Of a stretch of 14,310 nucleotides of DNA, positions 1,378-14,310 are shown in pieces. Under the pieces are notes generated by a model. It did not search any database. It was not told the origin of the DNA and saw only the letters and a list, made by a program, of their open reading frames with translations. The position numbers were made by a program, and so were the translations under genes. The stretch spans positions 1 through 14,310 of the IMG/VR virus record IMGVR_UViG_3300025738_000082. The stretch is one strand, 5' to 3'. The stretch comes from a virus. Within the stretch, counting starts at the first letter, position 1. Every line of letters begins with the position of its first letter.

Positions 1378-1604
1378 GCTCAAAATATAATAATGTATTT
1401 AAAGAACAAAGAGAAGTTTAGCAGGATGGCAAAGGTGAAAATTAAAAATCATTAGTCATTTTGTTTAACTACTGGTTATCAATTAACAGCATTCAGCCCT
1501 CTGATATATTTCTCGCTTAACTGTAAATACTCCCCAAAAATCGCAAGCTAATTTGCTAACTTGAAAACAAAAAAGTTTATATCTGCGATGCTTAAGAAAA
1601 GTAA

Positions 1605-1658
1605 TTGGTACCAAAAACAGTTCACCGGTTTCAATCCTGGAAACAAAAATGGTACCAC
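1605..1658. promoter_or_regulatory. Two GGTACC palindromes (1607-1612, 1651-1656), 44 bp apart. Candidate operator pair between the RHH gene and rep.
   Basis: TTGGTACCAA and ATGGTACCAC. Same pair with the same spacing in unit B (8636, 8680). A degenerate GGTACT lies at 1705-1710. Confidence 0.5.
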
Positions 1659-1708
1659 TAAATTTTACGGCCAACTCCGTTCGTCAGCCTATAGATTTTT
1701 TTTTGGTA

Positions 1709-1978
1709 CTAATCTATAAAAACTGGATTTCTCATAGCAAAATTATGAATTATCGTTTCTGCTTCAGATTTAGCTAACAAAGAATCTTGTAACTCATTAA
1801 CCTCTGCATTTAAATCTTCATGTTTAGATTTCAATAAATCATATCTTTGTTCTAAATCGGCAAACCTTAAAATAACCTGCAAAGCCGCACCACTAGAAGT
1901 TCCAACATTAAAGCGAGATTTTAACTTTTCTATTTCTTCTAAAAACTCTTCTGTATCATTATTAATTTTAACTAACAT
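1709..1978 (-). CDS. Ribbon-helix-helix-like DNA-binding protein with a C-terminal coiled-coil (89 aa). Putative phage regulator.
   Basis: The N-terminus MLVKINNDTEEFLEEIEKLKSRFNVGTSSGAALQVILRF fits a beta-strand, helix, G-x-S loop, helix pattern as in Arc or CopG. The heptad-like C-terminus is shared with unit B (NAEVNELQDSLLAKSEAETIIHNF identical). It has its own promoter and a GGGT RBS. Confidence 0.6.
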   Translation of the reverse strand: MLVKINNDTEEFLEEIEKLKSRFNVGTSSGAALQVILRFADLEQRYDLLKSKHEDLNAEVNELQDSLLAKSEAETIIHNFAMRNPVFID

Positions 1979-2001
1979 AATTTAACCCTTTAATTGATTA
2001 T

Positions 2002-2096
2002 CTGGTACCATTTTAACAGATGCGAACCACAAGTAAAGTTAATTCGGTACCAAAATATCAATTATTTTCCCCCAGGTTATTTTTAATTAGTACCAA
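2002..2096. promoter_or_regulatory. Three phased (T)GGTACC-type palindromes upstream of and overlapping the RHH gene promoter.
   Basis: GGTACC at 2004-2009 and 2046-2051, and AGTACC at 2089-2094. Spacings are 42 and 43 bp. Same layout in unit B. Confidence 0.55.
2004..2037 (-). promoter_or_regulatory. Sigma70-type promoter of the 89-aa RHH gene, with a GGTACC palindrome abutting the -10.
   Basis: On the minus strand: TTTACT (2037-2032), 16-nt spacer, TGtTAAAAT (extended -10; -10 at 2015-2010), then GGTACC immediately after. The unit B equivalent is TTTACA-17-TAAAAT. Confidence 0.5.
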
Positions 2097-2220
2097 AACG
2101 TAAAGCTCTAGCCGTATCAAGAGCATTATCAACACCGATAAAAAACCCCATACAAATACAAACAGCACAGGCAACAAAAATTAATAAATTATCTTTATTA
2201 TCACTCAGAAATTTCTTCAT
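2083..2220 (-). CDS. Small single-pass membrane protein (45 aa), overlapping the zot 3' end.
   Basis: Hand translation: MKKFLSDNKDNLLIFVACAVCICMGFFIGVDNALDTARALRFGTN. A positionally equivalent 42-aa ORF with the same architecture (polar N-terminus plus one TM helix) exists in unit B. It falls below the track length cutoff. Confidence 0.45.
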   Translation of the reverse strand: MKKFLSDNKDNLLIFVACAVCICMGFFIGVDNALDTARALRFGTN

Positions 2221-3550
2221 TATTACTTTCCTTATCATTTAAAAAAGAGGGTGAAACGTCACGTTCAGGTTTCTCATATTTAACTGGAGCAAAAAAAACT
2301 AAACGTGAATTAACACCATCAGACAAACTAACTACAGAATCACTTTTAAAAGAAATCCTATAACCCATAACAACCAAATCAGAACTATTAACCGAAAATT
2401 CATCTGTACCAATATGGACAGAAAAAACATATTCAGCCGTAACCCTTTTACCTAATCTATAAATTTTATTGATACCCGTTAGATAAATAGCATCAGCGCT
2501 ATAGGGCAAAGTTAAAGAACCAACATCCTCAAACAAAGTCTTAGGAGTGACACGACCAACAGGAGAATGAATATCTTTTTGAATATCTTTAGGAGGAACT
2601 TTAAAACCGTTTTGAGATGTTTTATCAAAAACGGGAATGGAGGCAATTTTATTATTTTCGATGTGACTAGTGCGAAAGAAGAATATATAAATAATAAAAA
2701 CGACACAGGCAACAAAAACACCCGCACCAAGTATGATAGATAAAGTAATGGGACTGCCACCCGCTCCAGATTTTGTGTTTTGTCCGGTTGCTGTTGATTT
2801 GTAGATTTTGAATACATCAAGAGGAATTTTCCTATTAGTAACAATGTCGCCTTTTTTCGTTACGGTACCGTTACCACTGGGTAAATGTTCCAAAACTTTA
2901 GGACGTCTTTTAAAATACGGAAAGGGAGCGGAATCCTTTGAAGTATGAGCAAATGCCGCCTCACAAACCGAACGAATAAATCCAGAAACTTCTTTAATAT
3001 CAGGAGTAGCTAAAACAATATCCCAATTATAATGACGGTGACGCATAAACGACTCGCGCAATGTAGGTGGGTATTTTATGTAGTCTCGGTCATCAAAAAT
3101 ACTTAAACCAATATCATCTTCAAACTCTGAAATATCGACCAAAGATTTTATTAATTTTTGTTTTTCATGGTAAAGCGCTTTAACCTCTGGAGGCAATTTA
3201 TCATCCCAAAACCCCTCTGATTTATAATCATAATCAGTAGCTTTAAAACTACGATCATTTGGATAAATATCTTGTATTTCATCAATAAAAATAAAAGCGC
3301 CAATTGGCAACCAATGAAAAAAATTACGTATCAATTCACGACCTAAATCGTTATTTGAAGAGATACGAACTAAACGAGCTGAAGCAGGAAAAACAATATT
3401 CAATTCTCTTGAGATTTCTTCAATCGTCTTTACACCTTGTAAGTTAGTTACGACTAAACGACCAGCCACTAAAGCAGGAAGTAATTCAAACCAACAAACG
3501 GTAGACGATTTATAAGAACCCGGAGCACCATGGAATATTTTCGTAGCCAT
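2201..3550 (-). CDS. zot: Zot / pI-family phage assembly ATPase (449 aa).
   Basis: The N-terminus IFHGAPGSYKSSTVCWFELLPAL (Walker A), FIFIDEIQDIYP (Walker B) and FMRHRHYNWDIVLATPDIKEV follow the Vibrio cholerae Zot sequence as I remember it. It has a central TM helix (ITLSIILGAGVFVACVVFIIYIFFF) and a C-terminal periplasmic domain. Confidence 0.9.
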   Translation of the reverse strand: MATKIFHGAPGSYKSSTVCWFELLPALVAGRLVVTNLQGVKTIEEISRELNIVFPASARLVRISSNNDLGRELIRNFFHWLPIGAFIFIDEIQDIYPNDRSFKATDYDYKSEGFWDDKLPPEVKALYHEKQKLIKSLVDISEFEDDIGLSIFDDRDYIKYPPTLRESFMRHRHYNWDIVLATPDIKEVSGFIRSVCEAAFAHTSKDSAPFPYFKRRPKVLEHLPSGNGTVTKKGDIVTNRKIPLDVFKIYKSTATGQNTKSGAGGSPITLSIILGAGVFVACVVFIIYIFFFRTSHIENNKIASIPVFDKTSQNGFKVPPKDIQKDIHSPVGRVTPKTLFEDVGSLTLPYSADAIYLTGINKIYRLGKRVTAEYVFSVHIGTDEFSVNSSDLVVMGYRISFKSDSVVSLSDGVNSRLVFFAPVKYEKPERDVSPSFLNDKESNNEEISE

Positions 3551-3554
3551 TAGA

Positions 3555-3944
3555 TCACCATTTCATAAAATCAAGAATGTAACGAGTAACAAACGCTTCC
3601 ATAATCAAAGTGAAAGCATCAAAAAAACGAACGTCTATAAGTGTCTGAACTATGTCAGAATCAAGGGAACCAATTGAAGTTTGAATGACATCAACCAAAG
3701 ATAAATTATCAATAAAAGTTGAAGCTATAGTGTAAGCAAACTGACTAAAGAAAATCATTGAAGTAACTTTTGCCAATATAATATATTGCAATAACCACGT
3801 TAAAAAATTCTTTAGAAAAAGCGGAATATCAATTGTTAAATATTCCCACATCGAGCCAAAAAAACTTGCTACAGAATCAGTAAAACCACCTGCAAATGAA
3901 CTGCTAGAAAAGAGCAGCACAAAAATAATAAATAAAATTCTCAT
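3555..3944 (-). CDS. pVI-like minor virion or membrane protein (129 aa from the internal ATG).
   Basis: It lies between the pIII-like and zot genes, as gVI or ace does. It is hydrophobic with multiple TM segments and homologous to unit B 10616..11029. The ATG at 3944 overlaps the pIII stop (TAATG). The upstream part of the track ORF lies inside pIII and has no counterpart in unit B. Confidence 0.6.
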   Translation of the reverse strand: MRILFIIFVLLFSSSSFAGGFTDSVASFFGSMWEYLTIDIPLFLKNFLTWLLQYIILAKVTSMIFFSQFAYTIASTFIDNLSLVDVIQTSIGSLDSDIVQTLIDVRFFDAFTLIMEAFVTRYILDFMKW

Positions 3945-5350
3945 TACATACGCCCTTGAAAAATTATTGATAAGGAAATTAAAGAAGCGAGTGCATACAA
4001 AATCGCACCGATAGAAGCAAAATACTGAGAGAACCGCGACCATGAAATATCATAAGTCCCCTGAGATAAAACAAGATTCGTTTGCTGATAACCACTACCC
4101 GTAACAGTCAAATTAAATTTAGCCATTAAACTAGTTTTATAAGAATTTATATTTTCCTTTAAAGTAATTTCAGCCCCTGCAATTTTTGTGTTTACCTCGG
4201 TTTGGTCAAGAAACGAAGTGATAAAAGAACCTGAGCCGTAACGCGTCAAAGTTCCTGCTCCAGTATTTTCAAGTGAATTAGATTCGATAGCCGCAACAAT
4301 ATTTTCAGAATTAGTAGTTCCTGAAGCCGCACTATTATTAATTGAATTAATCATTCCAGAATCATCAAAACTACCACCAGTGGAACCACCACCAGAGCTA
4401 CTTTGAATAGCGCTTATAACTTCGTCTAATTTGGAAATTGAATTAGTAGAATTAACAGCATCAACAACAGCATTTTTAGCAACAATGGTTTGTTCAGCGT
4501 TTGAATTTCTAAGGTTGATAACCTCGTTTATTAACACATCACCTTGAGTCGTTGTAATACCATCGTTTCCAGTTCCATCAGCCGTTGTTGTTCCATCAGC
4601 TACATAAGGAATATCGGTTGTACTTGTAGGTGTGTAAGCATCACCACAACCAAAAACACAATTTGGGTCAGCAGTATCAGCAACATCACAATCAGCTAAA
4701 TCATTTGGATCGGCAGGATTACATAAACCATCAGGAGCATTAGCAAGTGAGCCGTTTTTATCTCCAGTTGTACCGTCATTACATATAAAATCACAGGATA
4801 AAGTTGAATCACCATTATCAGTAAAATTTGAAGATGTTAAACCATTATGTGAGAAACATTGGTTTTGAGCCATAGTGGTACATTCTTCATTGTTGGCTAT
4901 TGGTTCGGGCTCAGGAGGTGAGCCACATTCGTAAGTATAATCACCACTATTTTCAGGAGTCCATGAAAAATCTTTTAGGTCGACATTAGCAGATTCACAT
5001 TTGTCTTGAGCGATCTCTTGGCAATCATCAAAGTTACAACCTGCCGAACCACCATAATTAAAAGTTATTGTTTTTCTATGGGTACCATTTGAACCAATAA
5101 GAACGGCAATTTTCCCATTTTGCCAAGTGGAAAGCTGAATATATTGATAGCCACTACAATAAGAAGAACCAGACATAACTGAAGTTACAGCCGCAAACAT
5201 TTCATCTTTCGTTCTAAATTTATGGTTCGTTAAAAGAGATTTATTATCTGGATACATTGAACAACTAGTATCAACACCAGTGCCAATTAAATAAGAAGCT
5301 GAAGAACTAAAACTGAAAAGGGTTATAAGCAATAAAAAAATATATTTCAT
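3944..5350 (-). CDS. pIII-like adsorption / minor coat protein (468 aa).
   Basis: Signal peptide MKYIFLLLITLFSFSSSA, Cys-rich N-terminal domains, Gly/Ser/Thr/Asp-rich linkers (SSSGGGSTGGS) and a C-terminal membrane anchor (ASIGAILYALASLISLSIIF). It sits after the coat gene. Confidence 0.7.
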   Translation of the reverse strand: MKYIFLLLITLFSFSSSASYLIGTGVDTSCSMYPDNKSLLTNHKFRTKDEMFAAVTSVMSGSSYCSGYQYIQLSTWQNGKIAVLIGSNGTHRKTITFNYGGSAGCNFDDCQEIAQDKCESANVDLKDFSWTPENSGDYTYECGSPPEPEPIANNEECTTMAQNQCFSHNGLTSSNFTDNGDSTLSCDFICNDGTTGDKNGSLANAPDGLCNPADPNDLADCDVADTADPNCVFGCGDAYTPTSTTDIPYVADGTTTADGTGNDGITTTQGDVLINEVINLRNSNAEQTIVAKNAVVDAVNSTNSISKLDEVISAIQSSSGGGSTGGSFDDSGMINSINNSAASGTTNSENIVAAIESNSLENTGAGTLTRYGSGSFITSFLDQTEVNTKIAGAEITLKENINSYKTSLMAKFNLTVTGSGYQQTNLVLSQGTYDISWSRFSQYFASIGAILYALASLISLSIIFQGRM

Positions 5351-5362
5351 AAGTCACCAAGT

Positions 5363-5389
5363 AAAAAAAAAGCGCCCTATTAAGACGCT
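5363..5389 (-). terminator. Rho-independent terminator or attenuator between the coat gene and the pIII-like gene.
   Basis: Minus strand: AGCGTC-TTAATAG-GGCGCT (6 bp with one G-U) followed by T9. Unit B has a different stem sequence (AGTCTC/GAGGCT) at the same place, also followed by T9. Ff phages carry a terminator after gene VIII. Confidence 0.6.
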
Positions 5390-5460
5390 CTGATACCTGA
5401 TGTAAATCCTTCTATCATTGCGTAATAGAGGCAACAGGCAAACAAAATGGAAATGACCAT
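5380..5460 (-). CDS. 26-aa hydrophobic micro-ORF. Candidate pVII/pIX-type minor virion protein.
   Basis: MVISILFACCLYYAMIEGFTSGIRAS, versus VVLTVLIACTFYYCMVEGFSSGIRVS in unit B (12388..12468). The frame and length are conserved and the substitutions are conservative. It starts 3 nt after the coat stop. Confidence 0.5.
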   Translation of the reverse strand: MVISILFACCLYYAMIEGFTSGIRAS

Positions 5461-5463
5461 TTT

Positions 5464-5664
5464 TTACTTACGGAACCAACCAAGTACAGCATTTACACCG
5501 AAACCAAGGATAGCAATTGCAATTACAGCCGCAATTACAGCAGTTACGTTGCCAGTTCCTTCAGTTGAAGCAGTACCGATTTGAGTTGTTAAGTCAGCCG
5601 CATTAGCACCAACAGAAGCAACAAGAGTAGAACCGACTAAAACTAATTTTTGTGAAGTTTTCAT
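5464..5664 (-). CDS. pVIII-like major coat protein precursor (66 aa from ATG; the track ORF starts 12 nt upstream at TTG).
   Basis: Signal peptide ending ANA|AD. The mature peptide of about 44 aa has an acidic/polar N-terminus, a hydrophobic core (AVIAAVIAIAILGFGV) and a basic C-terminus (WFRK). Confidence 0.8.
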   Translation of the reverse strand: MKTSQKLVLVGSTLVASVGANAADLTTQIGTASTEGTGNVTAVIAAVIAIAILGFGVNAVLGWFRK

Positions 5665-5689
5665 ATTATTTTCCAAATTATTAAGAGTT

Positions 5690-5944
5690 TTATTTACCTA
5701 ACCAGCGCACAACGCGTCCGGCAAAGTGAGAAGTTAAAAAAGCTAAAATTAAAGCCGTTTCAACGATTGCAAAAACCTCAGTGTCAAACGCAAATAAGAC
5801 GCTTAAAAGTTCCTGCATTTGTTGCAATGAACCAGATTGTAAATTTACAAATTCAACCTGCGTCATTAAAACAAATTCGGTACATTCCGTTTCAGCCGCA
5901 ACTTTTAAAAAACCGCTACCATCAGCTACAGCACAAACAGACAT
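5690..5944 (-). CDS. Small membrane protein (84 aa), unknown function. Possibly a minor virion or assembly protein.
   Basis: The C-terminal TM helix plus basic tail (AIVETALILAFLTSHFAGRVVRWLGK) is conserved in unit B ORF 12696..13166. Tightly packed between the ssb-like and coat genes. Confidence 0.55.
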   Translation of the reverse strand: MSVCAVADGSGFLKVAAETECTEFVLMTQVEFVNLQSGSLQQMQELLSVLFAFDTEVFAIVETALILAFLTSHFAGRVVRWLGK

Positions 5945-5949
5945 TATTA

Positions 5950-6264
5950 TTAAGCCGCCTTTCTAGGTGAGAAACCGATTATTTCCATCGTTACGCCACC
6001 ACCTTTTACAGCCGTTTTTACATCAACATCAACAAGACCAGGAACTAAACCGGATGATGCTAAAGAACGAGCTAAAACGTTATCTTGTAAAACAGACATT
6101 TTTACTTTCGCATGTTGCTGTCCTACGTCGATACGATCACTAGATATTTCGTCAGCTACGTTTTCATCAAGAATAATTGCGCTTGCATAAACTATTTTTT
6201 CACCGCTATTAGAATCGACCATGTTGCCTGCACTAATGCGTAAAATATTCATTTGTACTTTCAT
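5950..6264 (-). CDS. Putative ssDNA-binding protein (gV position), 104 aa from the ATG at 6264.
   Basis: First gene of the structural operon. Its size and the beta-rich composition I judge by eye suit a gV-type protein. It matches unit B in length and closely in sequence (MKVQ...RISAGNMVD...IDVGQQHAKVKMSV). The GTG start in the track (6282) lies inside the leader repeats and has no counterpart in unit B. The function is inferred from position only. Confidence 0.5.
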   Translation of the reverse strand: MKVQMNILRISAGNMVDSNSGEKIVYASAIILDENVADEISSDRIDVGQQHAKVKMSVLQDNVLARSLASSGLVPGLVDVDVKTAVKGGGVTMEIIGFSPRKAA

Positions 6265-6274
6265 TTTTTTCCCC

Positions 6275-6298
6275 TGAATCACTGAATCACTAAATCAC
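6275..6298. repeat. Three tandem 8-bp repeats, TGAATCAC TGAATCAC TAAATCAC, in the 5' leader of the structural operon.
   Basis: Direct reading. They lie between the predicted transcription start and the RBS (GGGGAAAAAAAATG) of the ssb-like gene. Conserved in unit B at 13497..13520 with one change (TAAACCAC). Confidence 0.7.
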
Positions 6299-6308
6299 TT
6301 TGAACCAG

Positions 6309-6338
6309 ATTCTAGTTGCAAGTGAGATCTTGTGTCAA
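6309..6338 (-). promoter_or_regulatory. Strong sigma70-type promoter of the structural operon.
   Basis: Minus strand: TTGACA (6338-6333), 18-nt spacer, TAGAAT (6314-6309). Identical hexamers and spacing in unit B. An imperfect 10-bp inverted repeat, CACTTGCAAC-N9-GTTCAAAGTG (6296..6324), is centred on the -10. Confidence 0.65.
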
Positions 6339-6366
6339 TAGTTATTTGTATCAAAAGCTATATAAT
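6335..6366 (+). promoter_or_regulatory. Candidate promoter of the plus-strand 59-aa gene, back-to-back with the structural promoter.
   Basis: Perfect TATAAT at 6361-6366 (13583-13588 in unit B). The -35 is only weak (conserved TCAATAGTT) and overlaps the minus-strand TTGACA. Confidence 0.4.
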
Positions 6367-6400
6367 TAGAAATGAACTAGCTAAAAAGAGAATGGAAATT

Positions 6401-6580
6401 ATGAAAACTGAAAGTATTAGAGCAAGGATTGAAGATGCGAAAATCTTGAAACAGGAATGCAGGGTTATGTCAGCAGAACTACAAAGACAGGTGCCTGTAA
6501 GTGAATTGGTAAATGGATTAATGGAGTACCTAGAAAGTGCCAAAGAAAAAATTAAAAATACTACTGGTGAAGTTAGCTAA
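6401..6580 (+). CDS. RHH (CopG/Arc-like) small DNA-binding protein, 59 aa, transcribed divergently from the structural operon.
   Basis: MKTESIRARIEDAKILKQECRVMSAELQRQVPVSELVNGLMEYLESAKE fits a beta-strand, helixA, loop, helixB pattern (compare the CopG pattern ...SrSelireAlreyLe). The ATG at 6401 corresponds to the unit B ATG at 13620, which has an AAGGAA RBS. The upstream GTG extension in the track is not conserved in unit B. Confidence 0.65.
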   Translation: MKTESIRARIEDAKILKQECRVMSAELQRQVPVSELVNGLMEYLESAKEKIKNTTGEVS

Positions 6581-6585
6581 GAAAG

Positions 6586-6640
6586 AAAAAATCAGCTACA
6601 GAAGATTAAAGAAAAATCTTGAAAAATAGCTGATTTTTTT
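6586..6640. terminator. Nested hairpin flanked by an A-tract and a T-tract. Bidirectional terminator between the convergent rep2 and the 59-aa gene.
   Basis: AATCAGCTA (6590-6598) pairs with TAGCTGATT (6627-6635). An inner AAGATT/AATCTT stem is present. A6 lies upstream and T7 downstream, so it reads as a terminator on either strand. Confidence 0.6.
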
Positions 6641-6644
6641 GAAT

Positions 6645-6668
6645 GTTCGGGAAGCCCCCACCCCGAAC
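6645..6668 (-). terminator. GC-rich hairpin directly after the rep2 stop codons.
   Basis: GTTCGGG (6645-6651) pairs with CCCGAAC (6662-6668). The same stem with a different loop lies at 13873..13893 after rep3. Confidence 0.45.
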
Positions 6669-6671
6669 TTA

Positions 6672-8318
6672 TTACTCTAGTTCTTTTCTTCTTTCCATAT
6701 AATGCTTATTAAGTTCAGCGCTTTTAGCTCTTTTTTCTTCATCTCTTTTTGCACCTACCCAATTAAAAGATCGCTCGTCAGTTTCTACTGGAGTTGTTAA
6801 ATAGTTTTGATGTTGAGGCTTAACCTTATGAATAATTTCGTGCCTAGTTTCAGTCGTCGAATATTCATTAACTTCTGGCATATCTACATCTGGATGATTT
6901 TTTCTATCCATAAATTCAAAGTAAAATTCTTCAAAACTCATAAAAGAATATGCAGGATAAAACAAACGAGCTACAGCTTCAGAACCACCATTTTCAGCAA
7001 GTTCTAAAAGAATATGACGTTTTTTATTTTTAATAATATATTCCCATTCGGACGGAGTGATATGGCAAAGAAAATCGGCTTTGTCCTCTTCTTGTTTTAA
7101 AATTTCTTCGTCAGATACATCAGCATCTAAATCAAAATATTTTCTTAAACCTTTCGACCATCTAATCAAGTTAACCCCCTGCATTGCTCTAGCATAAAAT
7201 AAAAATAAAATTCTGTTGTCTGTACGCTCTTCTTTGGTTTCAGCTTCGGTTGCATCACTCAATAGATCCCAAGGACTTTTAGAGCCTTTTCGACCTGTTT
7301 TTGTGTTGCCTTTGGTCATTTCGTCAGCCATATCCCAAGTAACTTTTTTACCTGTAGCCGTTGTTAAAAATTCATCATCAGACCCAAATTTAGAGATATA
7401 TTCACCTGCAAAAGCACCGTTTTGAATATCCATTCCGTACTCATTAGGACAATCTAAATCAGACAATTTACAAGCACTTTTCCAACGGGTTAAAAGTTTC
7501 GTCCATTCTTCAGATTGATTTTTTGATGGTTTGCCAGATTTACTGCGAGCCGTTAAAGGTAAGGGCTTTTTACTAAAAATAATAATATGAAAATGAGGGT
7601 GCCAACCATTAGAACCATGACGAACTTCAAAAGATCGTATGTTACCAATAACACCAAATCTATCTTTAAAACTTTTAGCCGCCTTTCCTCTCCAGAAGCG
7701 CTGTAAAGCATCAGAAATCTTAACTTTTAAATCTTCTATTTTATCGCCTGAATTATGTGGAGCGGTAAGGGTTAACATAGAAATATTGAGTTTTTCTGCA
7801 CGAGCAATATTAAAAGCCATACGCATTTCATTCGATTTTCTTTCGGATATTTTTGCGGAGCAAACGGGACATGTTCTAGAATTTGCGCAATTCATCAAGC
7901 CAGAATAAAAAGCCTTACCATTAGTTTTTGATTTTACAATTTGAGTTGTTACACCACTCCTGAAACGGGTGCAACTGCAAGTTCTATGATGAACTTCATA
8001 GCCTTTAGCATTTACGCGAACGTCAGAGCCATAGTAACCGAAAAGAATATTTCTCGCGGTATCTTGTAATTGATATCGAACTTGTCGAGCGAGGTTAATT
8101 GCTTGCTTCTTTGGTAACACACCAATATTTTCAATTTCACCCGTGGTGAAATCCGTTACAGAGTAACTTTTTGAGGAGTCGGTTTTAAGGGGGGGTGTTC
8201 GTAACTTCGTAGCATTACCGAGAGCGCCCCGCGCTTCTCCTCCTTGCTCAGGCTTCGCCGTCGTCGTCGCTTGTGCGCACCCTACTTGATTAACTGCTGT
8301 TTTATCAATATAATTCAT
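6672..8318 (-). CDS. Rolling-circle replication initiator (HUH endonuclease, pC194/Rep_1-like motif set), 548 aa.
   Basis: Motif I LTLTAPH, motif II GWHPHFHIIIF (HUH), motif III with a candidate catalytic Tyr GEYISKFG. An upstream Cys cluster is present (HHRTCSC ... CANSRTCPVC). A C-terminal extension of about 170 aa has no motif I recognise. Confidence 0.9.
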   Translation of the reverse strand: MNYIDKTAVNQVGCAQATTTAKPEQGGEARGALGNATKLRTPPLKTDSSKSYSVTDFTTGEIENIGVLPKKQAINLARQVRYQLQDTARNILFGYYGSDVRVNAKGYEVHHRTCSCTRFRSGVTTQIVKSKTNGKAFYSGLMNCANSRTCPVCSAKISERKSNEMRMAFNIARAEKLNISMLTLTAPHNSGDKIEDLKVKISDALQRFWRGKAAKSFKDRFGVIGNIRSFEVRHGSNGWHPHFHIIIFSKKPLPLTARSKSGKPSKNQSEEWTKLLTRWKSACKLSDLDCPNEYGMDIQNGAFAGEYISKFGSDDEFLTTATGKKVTWDMADEMTKGNTKTGRKGSKSPWDLLSDATEAETKEERTDNRILFLFYARAMQGVNLIRWSKGLRKYFDLDADVSDEEILKQEEDKADFLCHITPSEWEYIIKNKKRHILLELAENGGSEAVARLFYPAYSFMSFEEFYFEFMDRKNHPDVDMPEVNEYSTTETRHEIIHKVKPQHQNYLTTPVETDERSFNWVGAKRDEEKRAKSAELNKHYMERRKELE

Positions 8319-8368: not shown

Positions 8369-8407
8369 GGGTTGAATGTTTTCGCGGACGTTCAACCCAT
8401 TTTTTTG
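8369..8407. terminator. GC-rich stem-loop with flanking U-tracts upstream of rep2 (copy of 1340..1377).
   Basis: GGGTTGAATGT...ACGTTCAACCC at 8369..8398, then a T-run. Confidence 0.5.
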
Positions 8408-8633: not shown

Positions 8634-8687
8634 TTGGTACCAAAAACAGCTTACCGGTTTCAATCCTGGAAACAAAAGTGGTACCAA
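8634..8687. promoter_or_regulatory. Two GGTACC palindromes (8636-8641, 8680-8685), 44 bp apart.
   Basis: Direct reading. Same spacing as the unit A pair. Confidence 0.5.
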
Positions 8688-8692
8688 AAAAA

Positions 8693-8956
8693 TCAAAAAT
8701 CAGGTGTTCTCATAGAAAAATTGTGGATAATGGTTTCTGCTTCCGACTTAGCCAATAAACTATCTTGCAATTCATTAACTTCAGCATTCAAATCTTCATA
8801 CTTAGATTTTAAAGAATCGTAACGCTCCTCTAATTCACAAAATCTCAGGATTGACTGAAGGGCGGCACCACTAGAAGTTGAAACATTAAAACGAACCTTT
8901 AACCTTTCAACCTGCTCTGAAAACTCTTCTGTACTATTGTTTATTTTAATTAACAT
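8693..8956 (-). CDS. RHH-like DNA-binding protein with a C-terminal coiled-coil (87 aa). Homolog of 1709..1978.
   Basis: MLIKINNSTEEFSEQVERLKVRFNVSTSSGAALQSILRF plus a conserved C-terminal helix. GGAG RBS and its own promoter. Confidence 0.6.
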   Translation of the reverse strand: MLIKINNSTEEFSEQVERLKVRFNVSTSSGAALQSILRFCELEERYDSLKSKYEDLNAEVNELQDSLLAKSEAETIIHNFSMRTPDF

Positions 8957-8977
8957 TTTATAACTCCATAAGTGAAT

Positions 8978-9072
8978 ATGGTACCATTTTAAGCTTATAA
9001 ATTAAAAATGTAAAGCAAAATGGTACCAAAATATGAGTTATTTTCCCCCAGGTTATTTTTAAATGGTACCGA
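8978..9072. promoter_or_regulatory. Three phased GGTACC palindromes plus the RHH gene promoter (unit B).
   Basis: GGTACC at 8980-8985, 9022-9027 and 9065-9070 (spacings 42 and 43 bp). Minus-strand promoter TTTACA (9014-9009), 17-nt spacer, TAAAAT (8991-8986), with GGTACC directly downstream of the -10. Confidence 0.55.
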
Positions 9073-12372: not shown

Positions 12373-12397
12373 GAAAAAAAAAGCCTCCTAAGAGACT
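12373..12397 (-). terminator. Rho-independent terminator or attenuator between the coat and pIII-like genes (unit B).
   Basis: Minus strand: AGTCTC-TTAG-GAGGCT followed by T9 CC T9. Confidence 0.6.
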
Positions 12398-12468
12398 CTA
12401 ATTCCAGAACTAAAACCCTCTACCATGCAATAGTAAAAAGTGCAGGCTATTAGTACTGTTAAGACCAC
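12388..12468 (-). CDS. 26-aa hydrophobic micro-ORF. Homolog of 5380..5460.
   Basis: (GTG)VLTVLIACTFYYCMVEGFSSGIRVS. The GTG start overlaps the coat TAG stop by 1 nt. Conserved with unit A. Confidence 0.45.
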   Translation of the reverse strand: MVLTVLIACTFYYCMVEGFSSGIRVS

Positions 12469-13170: not shown

Positions 13171-13485
13171 TTAAGCTACTTTTTTCGGTTCAAAACCGAT
13201 AATTTCCATCGTAATGCCACCTGCTTTTACGGATGTTTTTACTTCACAAGTAACAACTCCCGGGACTTGACCGGACGAAGCTAAAGAACGAGCTAAAACG
13301 TTGTCATTTTCAACAGACATTTTTACTTTTGCGTGTTGCTGTCCTACGTCAATTCTGTCAATTGATATTTCATCTGCTACGTCTTCATCAAGGATAATTG
13401 CACTTGCATAAACAATTTTGTCACCGCTTTTAGTGTCGACCATATTGCCTGCACTAATGCGTAAAACTTCCAATTGTACTTTCAT
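13171..13485 (-). CDS. Putative ssDNA-binding protein (gV position), 104 aa.
   Basis: First gene after the structural promoter. Close homolog of 5950..6264. Function inferred from position and size only. Confidence 0.5.
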   Translation of the reverse strand: MKVQLEVLRISAGNMVDTKSGDKIVYASAIILDEDVADEISIDRIDVGQQHAKVKMSVENDNVLARSLASSGQVPGVVTCEVKTSVKAGGITMEIIGFEPKKVA

Positions 13486-13496
13486 CTTTTTTCTCC

Positions 13497-13520
13497 TGAA
13501 TCACTGAATCACTAAACCAC
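13497..13520. repeat. Three tandem 8-bp repeats, TGAATCAC TGAATCAC TAAACCAC, in the operon leader (unit B).
   Basis: Direct reading. Same position as 6275..6298. Confidence 0.7.
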
Positions 13521-13530
13521 TTTGAACCAG

Positions 13531-13560
13531 ATTCTAGTTGCAAGTGAGTTTATGTGTCAA
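13531..13560 (-). promoter_or_regulatory. Strong sigma70-type promoter of the unit B structural operon.
   Basis: Minus strand: TTGACA (13560-13555), 18-nt spacer, TAGAAT (13536-13531). Confidence 0.65.
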
Positions 13561-13619
13561 TAGTTTTTTGAAACAAAGAGGATATAATTAGGAATGAACT
13601 AGCGAAAAGGAATGGAAAA

Positions 13620-13799
13620 ATGAAAACTGAAAGTATTAGAGCAAGGGTAGAAGATGCCAAAATTTTAAAGCAGGAATGCAGAGTTTTATCAGCTGAATTA
13701 CAGAGACAAGTCTCTGTTAGTGAATTAGTTAACGGATTAATGGAATATCTAGAAAATGCCAAAGAAAAAATTAAAAATACTACTGAACAAACTAGCTAA
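13620..13799 (+). CDS. RHH (CopG/Arc-like) small DNA-binding protein, 59 aa (below the track cutoff).
   Basis: Hand translation: MKTESIRARVEDAKILKQECRVLSAELQRQVSVSELVNGLMEYLENAKEKIKNTTEQTS. AAGGAA RBS 8 nt upstream and TATAAT at 13583-13588. Close homolog of 6401..6580. Confidence 0.65.
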   Translation: MKTESIRARVEDAKILKQECRVLSAELQRQVSVSELVNGLMEYLENAKEKIKNTTEQTS

Positions 13800-13893: not shown

Positions 13894-14310
13894 TTATTCT
13901 AATTCTTTCCTTCTTTCGATGAAGTGTTTATTTAATTCAGCAGTTTTAACCCTTTTTTCTTCTTCTCTTTTAGCACCAACCCAATTGAAAGAACGCTGGT
14001 CAGTTTTTACTGGGGTAGTTAAATAATTTTGATGTTGAGGCTTAACTTTATGAATAATTTCATGCCTAGTTTCAGTCGTTGAGTATTCATTAACTTCAGG
14101 CATATCAACGTCAGGGTGGTTTTTTCTATCCATAAATTCAAAATAAAATTCTTCAAAACTCATAAAAGAATATGCAGGATAAAACAAACGAGCCACAGCT
14201 TCAGAACCACCATTTTCAGCAAGTTCTAAAAGAATATGACGTTTTTTATTTTTAATAATATATTCCCATTCGGACGGAGTGATATGGCAAAGAAAATCGG
14301 CTTTGTCCTC
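13894..14310 (-). CDS. Rolling-circle replication initiator. Partial: 138 C-terminal codons, 5' part beyond the window.
   Basis: The track ORF (from an internal Met) matches the rep2 C-terminus. The frame stays open upstream to the window edge, and the DNA aligns with 6672..7088. Confidence 0.85.
   Translation of the reverse strand, partial: EDKADFLCHITPSEWEYIIKNKKRHILLELAENGGSEAVARLFYPAYSFMSFEEFYFEFMDRKNHPDVDMPEVNEYSTTETRHEIIHKVKPQHQNYLTTPVKTDQRSFNWVGAKREEEKRVKTAELNKHFIERRKELE
14263..14310. repeat. 48-nt terminal direct repeat. Identical to window positions 1..48 and to 7041..7088.
   Basis: Direct comparison: TTCCCATTCGGACGGAGTGATATGGCAAAGAAAATCGGCTTTGTCCTC at all three places. Confidence 0.9.

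Follow-up and report, generated by a model that had tools for sequence, protein, structure and literature searches.

The control region and the 59-amino acid protein

The sequence analyzed here, hereafter the window, is the full 14,310 nt of IMG/VR virus record IMGVR_UViG_3300025738_000082, and this work concerns a short intergenic segment of it, from which a strong promoter-like sequence and a gene for a protein of 59 amino acids (aa) point in opposite directions (Table 1). The large open reading frames (ORFs) of the window all lie on the minus strand and recur with a period of ~7.0-7.2 kb. Each unit encodes, in order, an ssb-like protein, a small protein matching phrog_969, a major-coat-like protein, pIII-like and pVI-like proteins, a Zot/pI assembly ATPase (Pfam Zot, E = 4e-44), a protein of 87 or 89 aa, and a Rep_1-family replication protein (Rep). 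The window is two related yet different filamentous phage genomes. The original prediction, made from the sequence alone, described the intergenic segment as a compact divergent control region, and this description is borne out: a strong promoter for the structural genes, a small conserved gene running the other way, and repeats around the -10 box are all present. These elements are conserved together in related loci, and the ORF of the 59-aa protein is under coding constraint. We consider it probable that the 59-aa gene, a promoter of the form TTGACA-18-TAGWAT, and a set of ATCAC repeats form one portable regulatory (repressor/operator) cassette of a marine filamentous phage lineage.

A search of 5.8 billion proteins recovered 17 close homologs of the 59-aa protein (59-100% identity), all of which start with MKT, and a full hidden Markov model search recovered ~25 more remote, small homologs; the resulting family of ~40 members is unannotated. 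Among 11 distinct gene sequences, pairwise differences at codon positions 1, 2, and 3 numbered 666, 391, and 1094, respectively, a pattern indicating that the ORF is a coding sequence under purifying selection. Conservation of the ORF in relatives, which had been singled out for checking, is thus found together with a coding substitution pattern. Further, a Shine-Dalgarno-like GGA, GGAG, or GGGG precedes the start codon in the aligned loci. A GTG at 6332, the start of the mechanically called ORF, was ruled out because it lies inside the -35 box of the opposing promoter and is not conserved, whereas the ATG is kept in homologs. An antisense ORF (6358-6543) was likewise rejected as a true gene, since its third positions are shared with the sense frame, its position-1/position-2 pattern is wrong, and it is broken in related locus L054; it is treated as a shadow ORF. 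The relatives of the window phages come from marine metagenomes, one of them a Tara sample. Searches with tblastn against phages and plasmids returned noise or nothing for the 59-aa protein, and no confirmed locus of the family was found in 185,579 species genomes, among which relatives of Rep are merely 24-37% identical.

Table 1. Features of the control region, its flanking genes, and its second copy in the window. A point marks features given without a strand.
Feature	Position (nt)	Strand	Remarks
ssb-like gene, 104 aa	5950..6264	-	Start codon ATG at 6264; first gene downstream of the control region
Three tandem 8-nt repeats CTGAATCACT, proposed main operator	6274-6299	.	Located with a repeat finder; overlooked in the original prediction
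Imperfect inverted repeat, 15-nt arms 6295-6309 and 6311-6325	6295..6325	.	12 of 15 positions matched; center 6310 inside the -10 box
Inverted repeat copy TCTCACT in the -35/-10 spacer, proposed operator half-site	6321..6327	-	TCACT or ATCAC at this place in most relatives
Sigma-70-type promoter TTGACA-18-TAGAAT, for ssb and coat genes	6338..6309	-	11 of 12 consensus positions
Palindrome TTTG-TAT-CAAA between the two promoters	6345..6355	.	Read from the sequence
TATAAT, probable -10 of the regulator gene promoter	6361-6366	+	22 nt from the minus-strand -35
59-aa regulator gene, probable ribbon-helix-helix (RHH)-type DNA-binding protein	6401-6580	+	Homologs, codon pattern, AlphaFold2 (AF2) model
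Bidirectional intrinsic terminator: A-run, 14-bp stem 6585-6598/6627-6640, T-run	6585..6640	.	Common to the regulator gene and rep
Second hairpin, after the terminator	6645-6668
rep, Rep_1-family rolling-circle replication gene	6672..8318	-	Convergent with the regulator gene
Unit-B copy of the cassette	13496..13799	.	Repeats 13496-13513, promoter 13560..13531, TATAAT 13583-13588, 59-aa gene 13620-13799

Promoters of the control region

The near-consensus minus-strand promoter of the original prediction is present where it had been placed, with TTGACA at 6338..6333 and TAGAAT at 6314..6309 separated by an 18-nt spacer. Together with its unit-B copy it gave the two best of 38 promoter-like sites in a scan of the window, and it is kept in 14 related loci as TTGACA, a spacer of 17-18 nt, and TAGAAT or TAGTAT. 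Control regions were compared through an intergenic alignment of 12 distinct loci, with L063 and L065 read separately. To assign the whole structural operon to this one promoter was an over-reach, since a hairpin follows the coat gene and a separate promoter-like site serves the 89-aa gene. The hairpin is terminator-like, carries a T-run, and lies on the minus strand between the major-coat-like and pIII-like genes of both units (5369-5391 and 12380-12399). Ff phages have a terminator at the equivalent place, after gene VIII, with graded read-through.

On the plus strand, the evidence is mixed. The TATAAT box proposed as the -10 of the regulator promoter exists, and its position is kept in 11 of the 12 aligned loci as TATAAT or TATACT, but the scan of the window did not call a promoter at 6361-6366 and no acceptable -35 accompanies the box. 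The best candidate, TAGTTA, matches 3 of 6 positions, a difficulty for the proposed switch, and TTGTAT and TTGATA were ruled out as -35 elements for lying 9 nt from TATAAT. The overlap of the two -35 regions that had been claimed accordingly holds as geometry, but on the plus strand there is no recognizable -35 to take part in it.

Repeats around the -10 box

The original prediction had drawn attention to a 10-bp inverted repeat centered on the -10 box. This repeat (CACTTTGAAC at 6296-6305 and GTTGCAAGTG at 6315-6324; 8 of 10 positions matched) is present, but on its own it is at chance level: among 2000 shuffles of the 138-nt region, 1296 contained a 10-nt-arm repeat that was equally good, and the 15-nt-arm version was equaled in 67, which is mildly unusual. 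Support for the inverted repeat therefore comes from the conservation of its outer arms (TCACT...AGTGA) in relatives, where no other part of the arms is kept, and not from shuffle statistics. A set of ATCAC repeats is a better description of the operator than a single 10-bp palindrome. The score of the three tandem repeats was reached by none of the 2000 shuffles; their AATCACT cores (6277-6283, 6285-6291, and 6293-6299) fall at about +4 to +27 of the structural transcript, and the third repeat is the left arm of the inverted repeat.

Comparison among relatives extends this picture. Most relatives carry TCACT or ATCAC at the spacer position 6321..6327, and across loci one copy of TCACT/AGTGA lies in the promoter spacer and one or more lie just past the -10. 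In the 75 nt next to the -35, no 5-mer is more enriched than this one (28 occurrences versus 1.43 expected, in 10 of 10 loci), and exact WATCACW reaches 10.3 per kb over the 150 nt lying upstream of the regulator gene versus 0.68 per kb in the remainder of the 11 loci, a 15-fold enrichment; because the loci are related and not independent samples, these statistics overstate the significance, and the L065 control region has no exact WATCACW, both of which temper the argument. The arrangement of copies varies by clade and always flanks or overlaps the -10: the clade of the window has three direct 8-bp repeats, the loci L055, L059, and L003 have a palindrome, AAGTGATTCACTT, and several loci have a motif copy over the -10, as TAGTATCACT. 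A shifting arrangement around a constant core speaks for selection on the ATCAC motif. Additionally, no stretch is better conserved between the window's two units than the switch segment (6260-6338), which has 92% identity, above the flanking coding DNA. Rfam returned no match.

It is extremely unlikely that the repeats and the palindrome serve replication, as Rep iterons or as a nick-site hairpin, or that they are chance features of A/T-rich intergenic DNA. The ease with which shuffles reproduce the 10-bp palindrome would fit such a view, as would the hairpins that rolling-circle origins often hold, yet Rep proteins of two unrelated families, Rep_1 and Phage_CRI, occur with this one cassette, and the tandem repeats, the motif enrichment, and the kept position of the motif all depart from chance. 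The tandem repeats could instead act in RNA, as a translational operator in the leader of the ssb mRNA that serves, for example, ssb autoregulation. In Ff phages the gene V protein regulates translation of gene II mRNA, the three repeats here lie in a leader of ~38 nt between the predicted transcription start and an AGGGGA Shine-Dalgarno sequence, and in the L055, L059, and L003 clades the palindromic leader could fold as a small RNA hairpin. A motif copy is nonetheless kept in the -35/-10 spacer, which is not transcribed, and copies occur in both orientations, which fits recognition of duplex DNA; an RNA operator is thus considered very unlikely.

The spacer copy also differs within one related contig. 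The tandem units of L004 are ~4% different overall, and at 90-101 versus 6746-6757 of that contig 6 of 12 nt differ, precisely in the promoter-spacer operator copy, with L005 carrying a third version of the spacer. These differences may reflect operator diversification or escape variants.

Fold of the 59-aa protein and comparison with the omega repressor

The 59-aa gene had been called RHH-like. An AF2 model built from 36 sequences, distant members included, has residues 1-9 extended, followed by helices over 10-27 and 33-56 (predicted local distance difference test score, pLDDT, 90.5, and at least 89 in all five models); in appearance, this predicted structure is an RHH monomer without its partner strand. 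The family alignment is compatible with such a fold, since positions 6, 8, and 10 are Ile, Val, Ala, or Leu and alternate with polar residues at 5, 7, and 9, and several members have Gly or Pro at position 10 or 11, at the strand/helix junction; these two features would favor an N-terminal strand. Asp12 is nearly invariant and fits a helix cap. When the model was compared with the PDB using Foldseek, the RHH proteins ParD2, ParD1, and NikR were among the top eight matches, at non-significant E values (3.6-7.8; template modeling score, TM, 0.42-0.64). The RHH reading is plausible from the 36-sequence model, the family pattern, and a strand resembling that of the omega repressor, but it lacks a significant match in sequence or structure. 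An RHH-type fold is therefore regarded as likely and not established.

The omega protein of pSM19035, an RHH repressor, binds 5'-WATCACW-3' heptads that lie, some direct and some inverted, over its target promoters (PMC9499535, PMC2441792), with Thr29 contacting the central G-C pair and the T29A variant losing binding (PMC2441792). In the window, AATCACT fits WATCACW in all three tandem cores, the protein is likewise small, and short non-palindromic repeats lie in direct and inverted orientation over a promoter. Moreover, the family sequence K-[ST]-[IV]-R-[AVI]-[RK] resembles the omega strand KTVRVR (K28-R33): the sole segment that hhalign brings together pairs K4-S5-I6-R7-A8-R9 with K28-T29-V30-R31-V32-R33, and the residues so paired are among the most conserved of the 59-aa family. 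The two systems differ in that the first helix of the 59-aa family is ~4 residues longer and in that omega belongs to a plasmid, whereas the element here is a phage that has no ParA partner. None of the 36 family members matches the Pfam family Omega_Repress (PF07764), which omega itself matches at E = 6e-32.

Several results weigh against an RHH-type, omega-like regulator. Searches of the 59-aa protein and 36 family members against Pfam, PHROGs, and NCBIfam gave no meaningful family and no RHH (a single member matched VAPB_antitox, only at E = 0.005), and a PDB profile search with the family gave just designed helical repeat proteins, judged spurious. An AF2 model from 17 sequences is a helical hairpin, with a helix over residues 2-28 and no N-terminal strand; this model, which had no PDB match with Foldseek, was set aside since the deeper alignment altered the N-terminus, and the disagreement of the two models means that the RHH-like topology depends on alignment depth. 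No significant structural match in the PDB was found for the 59-aa model (Foldseek E > 3). The hhalign alignment with omega covers 13 columns at a probability of 0.8%, and the repeats have a period of 8 bp, with three contiguous copies and one distant inverted copy, versus 7-10 unspaced 7-bp heptads for omega. Given the non-significant alignment and the 8-bp rather than 7-bp period, the omega parallel is not taken to mean membership of that family; it is offered as an analogy of mechanism that makes a specific prediction.

As the link between protein and repeats is drawn indirectly and the fold is unproven, the promoter and repeats might be a true operator for another binder, such as a host factor, the ssb protein, or the 87/89-aa protein, with the 59-aa protein acting as an activator, an anti-repressor, or a superinfection-exclusion factor. 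A different target for the 59-aa protein is at hand in the palindrome between the promoters: in most relatives a TTTG-N3-CAAA-like element keeps a fixed distance from the -35, upstream of it by 6-7 nt; this element may be a second operator or an UP-like A/T element, and, being nearer the regulator's promoter, could be the true site of the protein. Nevertheless, only the 59-aa gene always accompanies the repeats, whichever rep, ssb, and accessory genes are present; the orphan 89-aa gene, which relatives do not have, comes with TGGTACCA sites of its own; and the residues aligned to the DNA-reading strand of omega are highly conserved in the 59-aa family. Another binder is for these reasons thought unlikely.

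The omega protein is both a repressor and a ParB (PMC9499535), and a maintenance role was proposed for an omega-like protein, ORF13, of Pseudomonas phage PMBT54 (PMC10534721). By analogy, the 59-aa protein could be an omega-like or ParG-like centromere-binding or copy-control factor of an episomal replicative form, with the repeats as its partition site. No unit, however, has a ParA-type gene, the Zot-type assembly ATPase being the only P-loop protein; the 3-4 repeats are below what omega needs for ParA activation; and the repeats sit right on a consensus promoter. A partition function is accordingly judged a shade less probable even than the RNA operator.

Placement of the regulator gene and comparison with known systems

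The order ssb(-)/regulator(+)/rep(-) was found in every locus fetched, including those in which a Phage_CRI protein replaces the Rep_1 protein (L001, L002, L063, and L064). It holds also in L001 and L065, where the gene at the position of ssb is recognized by Pfam as Phage_DNA_bind. The 104-aa protein of the window itself has no Pfam match; from its position, it is probably a single-stranded DNA-binding (gene V-like) protein, and its ATG start agrees with that of the unit-B paralog (13171-13485). The regulator had been thought oddly placed, convergent with the rep of a neighboring unit. The ends of the contigs L001, L003, and L061 overlap by 119, 30, and 114 nt, respectively, which makes them single-unit circles, and there the regulator is flanked by the ssb gene and the 3' end of rep of its own genome. 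The slot is thus the rule in this lineage, and the neighboring unit is a product of cutting a circular or tandem array into linear units. The bidirectional terminator that had been claimed before rep was confirmed, with a stem flanked by an A-run and a T-run that folds on both strands (plus strand, z = -4.8; minus strand, z = -4.2).

The contrast drawn earlier with CTXphi also stands. As in the RstR/ig-2 region of CTXphi, an inovirus, a small gene (there for a repressor) is divergently transcribed beside a phage promoter, but rstR is upstream of and divergent from rstA, whereas the 59-aa gene diverges from ssb and converges with rep, downstream of which it lies. RstR in its canonical form has a helix-turn-helix. 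The 59-aa protein matched no helix-turn-helix family, and neither did any other ORF scanned, a set that did not include every small ORF; this agrees with the view that the phages encode no such repressor. The second-best viral match to the model with Foldseek was an 86-aa protein named RstR (TM 0.73, E = 0.21), which is not the same protein as the RstR of GQ499847.

The best viral structural match was ORF2 of phiAFP1, an Alteromonas inovirus (TM 0.82-0.86, probability 1.0, E = 0.078). This 56-aa protein is similar in size, superimposes with a root-mean-square deviation of 1.3 A over 55 columns at 25% identity, and comes from a phage of a marine gammaproteobacterial host; it is annotated as a "putative regulator" (PMC9769780). 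Its gene differs in placement, being upstream of rep, with rep and ssb adjacent. In phage PMBT54, a 64-aa antisense ORF2, annotated as MatP_C (RHH), occupies the same slot between rep and ssb, four tandem 8-bp repeats lie between ORF2 and ssb (L062 1765-1796), and a second small RHH protein, ORF13 (RHH_9), is encoded. The repeats differ, being TCGTGTTW and not ATCAC; hhalign detected no homology between the 59-aa family and ORF2 (probability 0.2%), and ORF2 had no Pfam match in this analysis. Both ORF2 and ORF13 are putative regulators known from annotation (PMC10534721).

Outside the inoviruses, the geometry resembles that of immI of phage P22, with its repressors Mnt and Arc and its divergent, overlapping promoters Pant and Pmnt. 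There, small RHH repressors bind over the -10/-35 of a strong promoter, a weak promoter of a repressor gene lies back-to-back with the strong one, and repression of the strong promoter favors the weak. The predicted starts in the window are ~70 bp apart. No sequence relationship with immI was detected; there is one regulator gene here and two there, and the proposed operator here consists of repeated ATCAC units and not of a single palindrome. The cassette is probably an unannotated instance of this familiar phage/plasmid type of switch.

A proposed mechanism

From the elements described above we infer a fold, DNA binding, a direction of regulation, and feedback, as follows. The 59-aa protein would be a small dimeric RHH-type DNA-binding protein whose N-terminal strand, K-[ST]-[IV]-R-x-[RK], recognizes repeats of the ATCAC type. 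Its sites would be the three tandem 8-bp copies past the transcription start and the inverted copy in the spacer, which bracket the -10, and cooperative binding of dimers to these copies would block RNA polymerase at the strong promoter. Expression of ssb, of the coat genes, and, by read-through, of the assembly genes would decrease, and the phage would thereby be kept in a carrier state or one of low production. The terminator-like hairpin that follows the major-coat gene (5391..5369) suggests graded read-through into the genes for pIII, pVI, and Zot, and rep would form a separate transcription unit that ends at the bidirectional terminator. As the -35 position of the regulator gene coincides with the -35 of the strong promoter, the two polymerases might exclude each other, and repression of the strong promoter might then relieve competition and favor synthesis of the regulator; this feedback is the most speculative step and is offered as conjecture.

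A more far-reaching version, in which the cassette is a mobile immunity or copy-state module of marine inoviruses, would comprise an unrecognized omega-like RHH family exchanged across Rep types, a spacer operator that diversifies rapidly, as in L004, into hetero-immune variants able to reside together as mixed tandem or heterodimeric genomes of which the window would be an example, and bistable promoter competition. This version is quite unlikely, somewhat more so than the action of another binder at the repeats.

As far as we know, only for a handful of filamentous phages, such as CTXphi and Pf, is it understood how silent carriage or virion production is chosen. The cassette is a candidate point of control in uncultured marine inoviruses of an entire lineage, and it supplies a defined protein family, promoter, and repeat motif that are open to direct testing. 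The strand and target that it has in common with omega yield a specific and falsifiable prediction of how the 59-aa protein would read DNA. The practical value lies in better annotation of inovirus regulatory modules in metagenomes, and no current concept is overturned.

The 87/89-aa gene

Each phage had been thought to encode a second RHH-type protein, of 89 aa. This was not upheld: the 89-aa protein has no match among Pfam and NCBIfam families or in the PDB, its sole homolog is the unit-B paralog, it is absent from relatives, and it does not align with the omega-like ORF13 of PMBT54. Five TGGTACCA palindromes lie around the 87/89-aa gene in each unit (1606-2095 and 8635-9071), and with up to one mismatch the motif has 17 matches versus 3.2 expected. 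Two copies bracket the promoter-like site of the gene, TTTACA-17-TAAAAT (9014..8986). These palindromes are likely a second, separate operator system.

Genome organization and relatives

The opening 48 nt of the contig are repeated at the unit junction (7041-7088) and at the other contig end (14263-14310), so that the contig closes as a circle of 14,262 nt with two unlike units (7040 and 7222 nt). The two-unit circle may be a true heterodimer or tandem (a replicative form or a prophage), or it may have been produced by an assembler joining two co-occurring phages at the shared 48-mer. An independent IMG/VR contig, L052, corresponds to window positions 1449-7095 at 99.9%. No GenBank phage was matched when the DNA of the whole window was searched at near identity; the Zot protein is ~31% identical to Zot of Vibrio filamentous phages, and by Rep the nearest cultured phage is PMBT54, at 29% identity.

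The rep gene that converges on the regulator matches Pfam Rep_1 (E = 1.3e-10) and phrog_11698 (E = 1.5e-62). The two rep copies of the window (6672-8318 versus 1-1280 plus 13894-14310) have 88-97% nucleotide identity, versus ~67-82% for the structural genes of the units, which suggests that the replication module was recently shared or exchanged. About 50 nt upstream of the rep start codon, a hairpin with a 13-bp stem, GGGTTGAACG...CGTTCAACCC, is found at 8369-8398 and 1340-1369, identical in both units and with an A-run and T-runs beside it; an attenuator or terminator ahead of rep, or a part of the replication origin, would be possible roles. Finally, in the related contigs L055 (2585-3085) and L056 (355-855), a 166-aa protein with the Pfam domain RNA_pol_A_CTD is encoded downstream of Zot; this domain is the C-terminal one of the RNA polymerase alpha subunit, and inoviruses do not usually carry such cargo.

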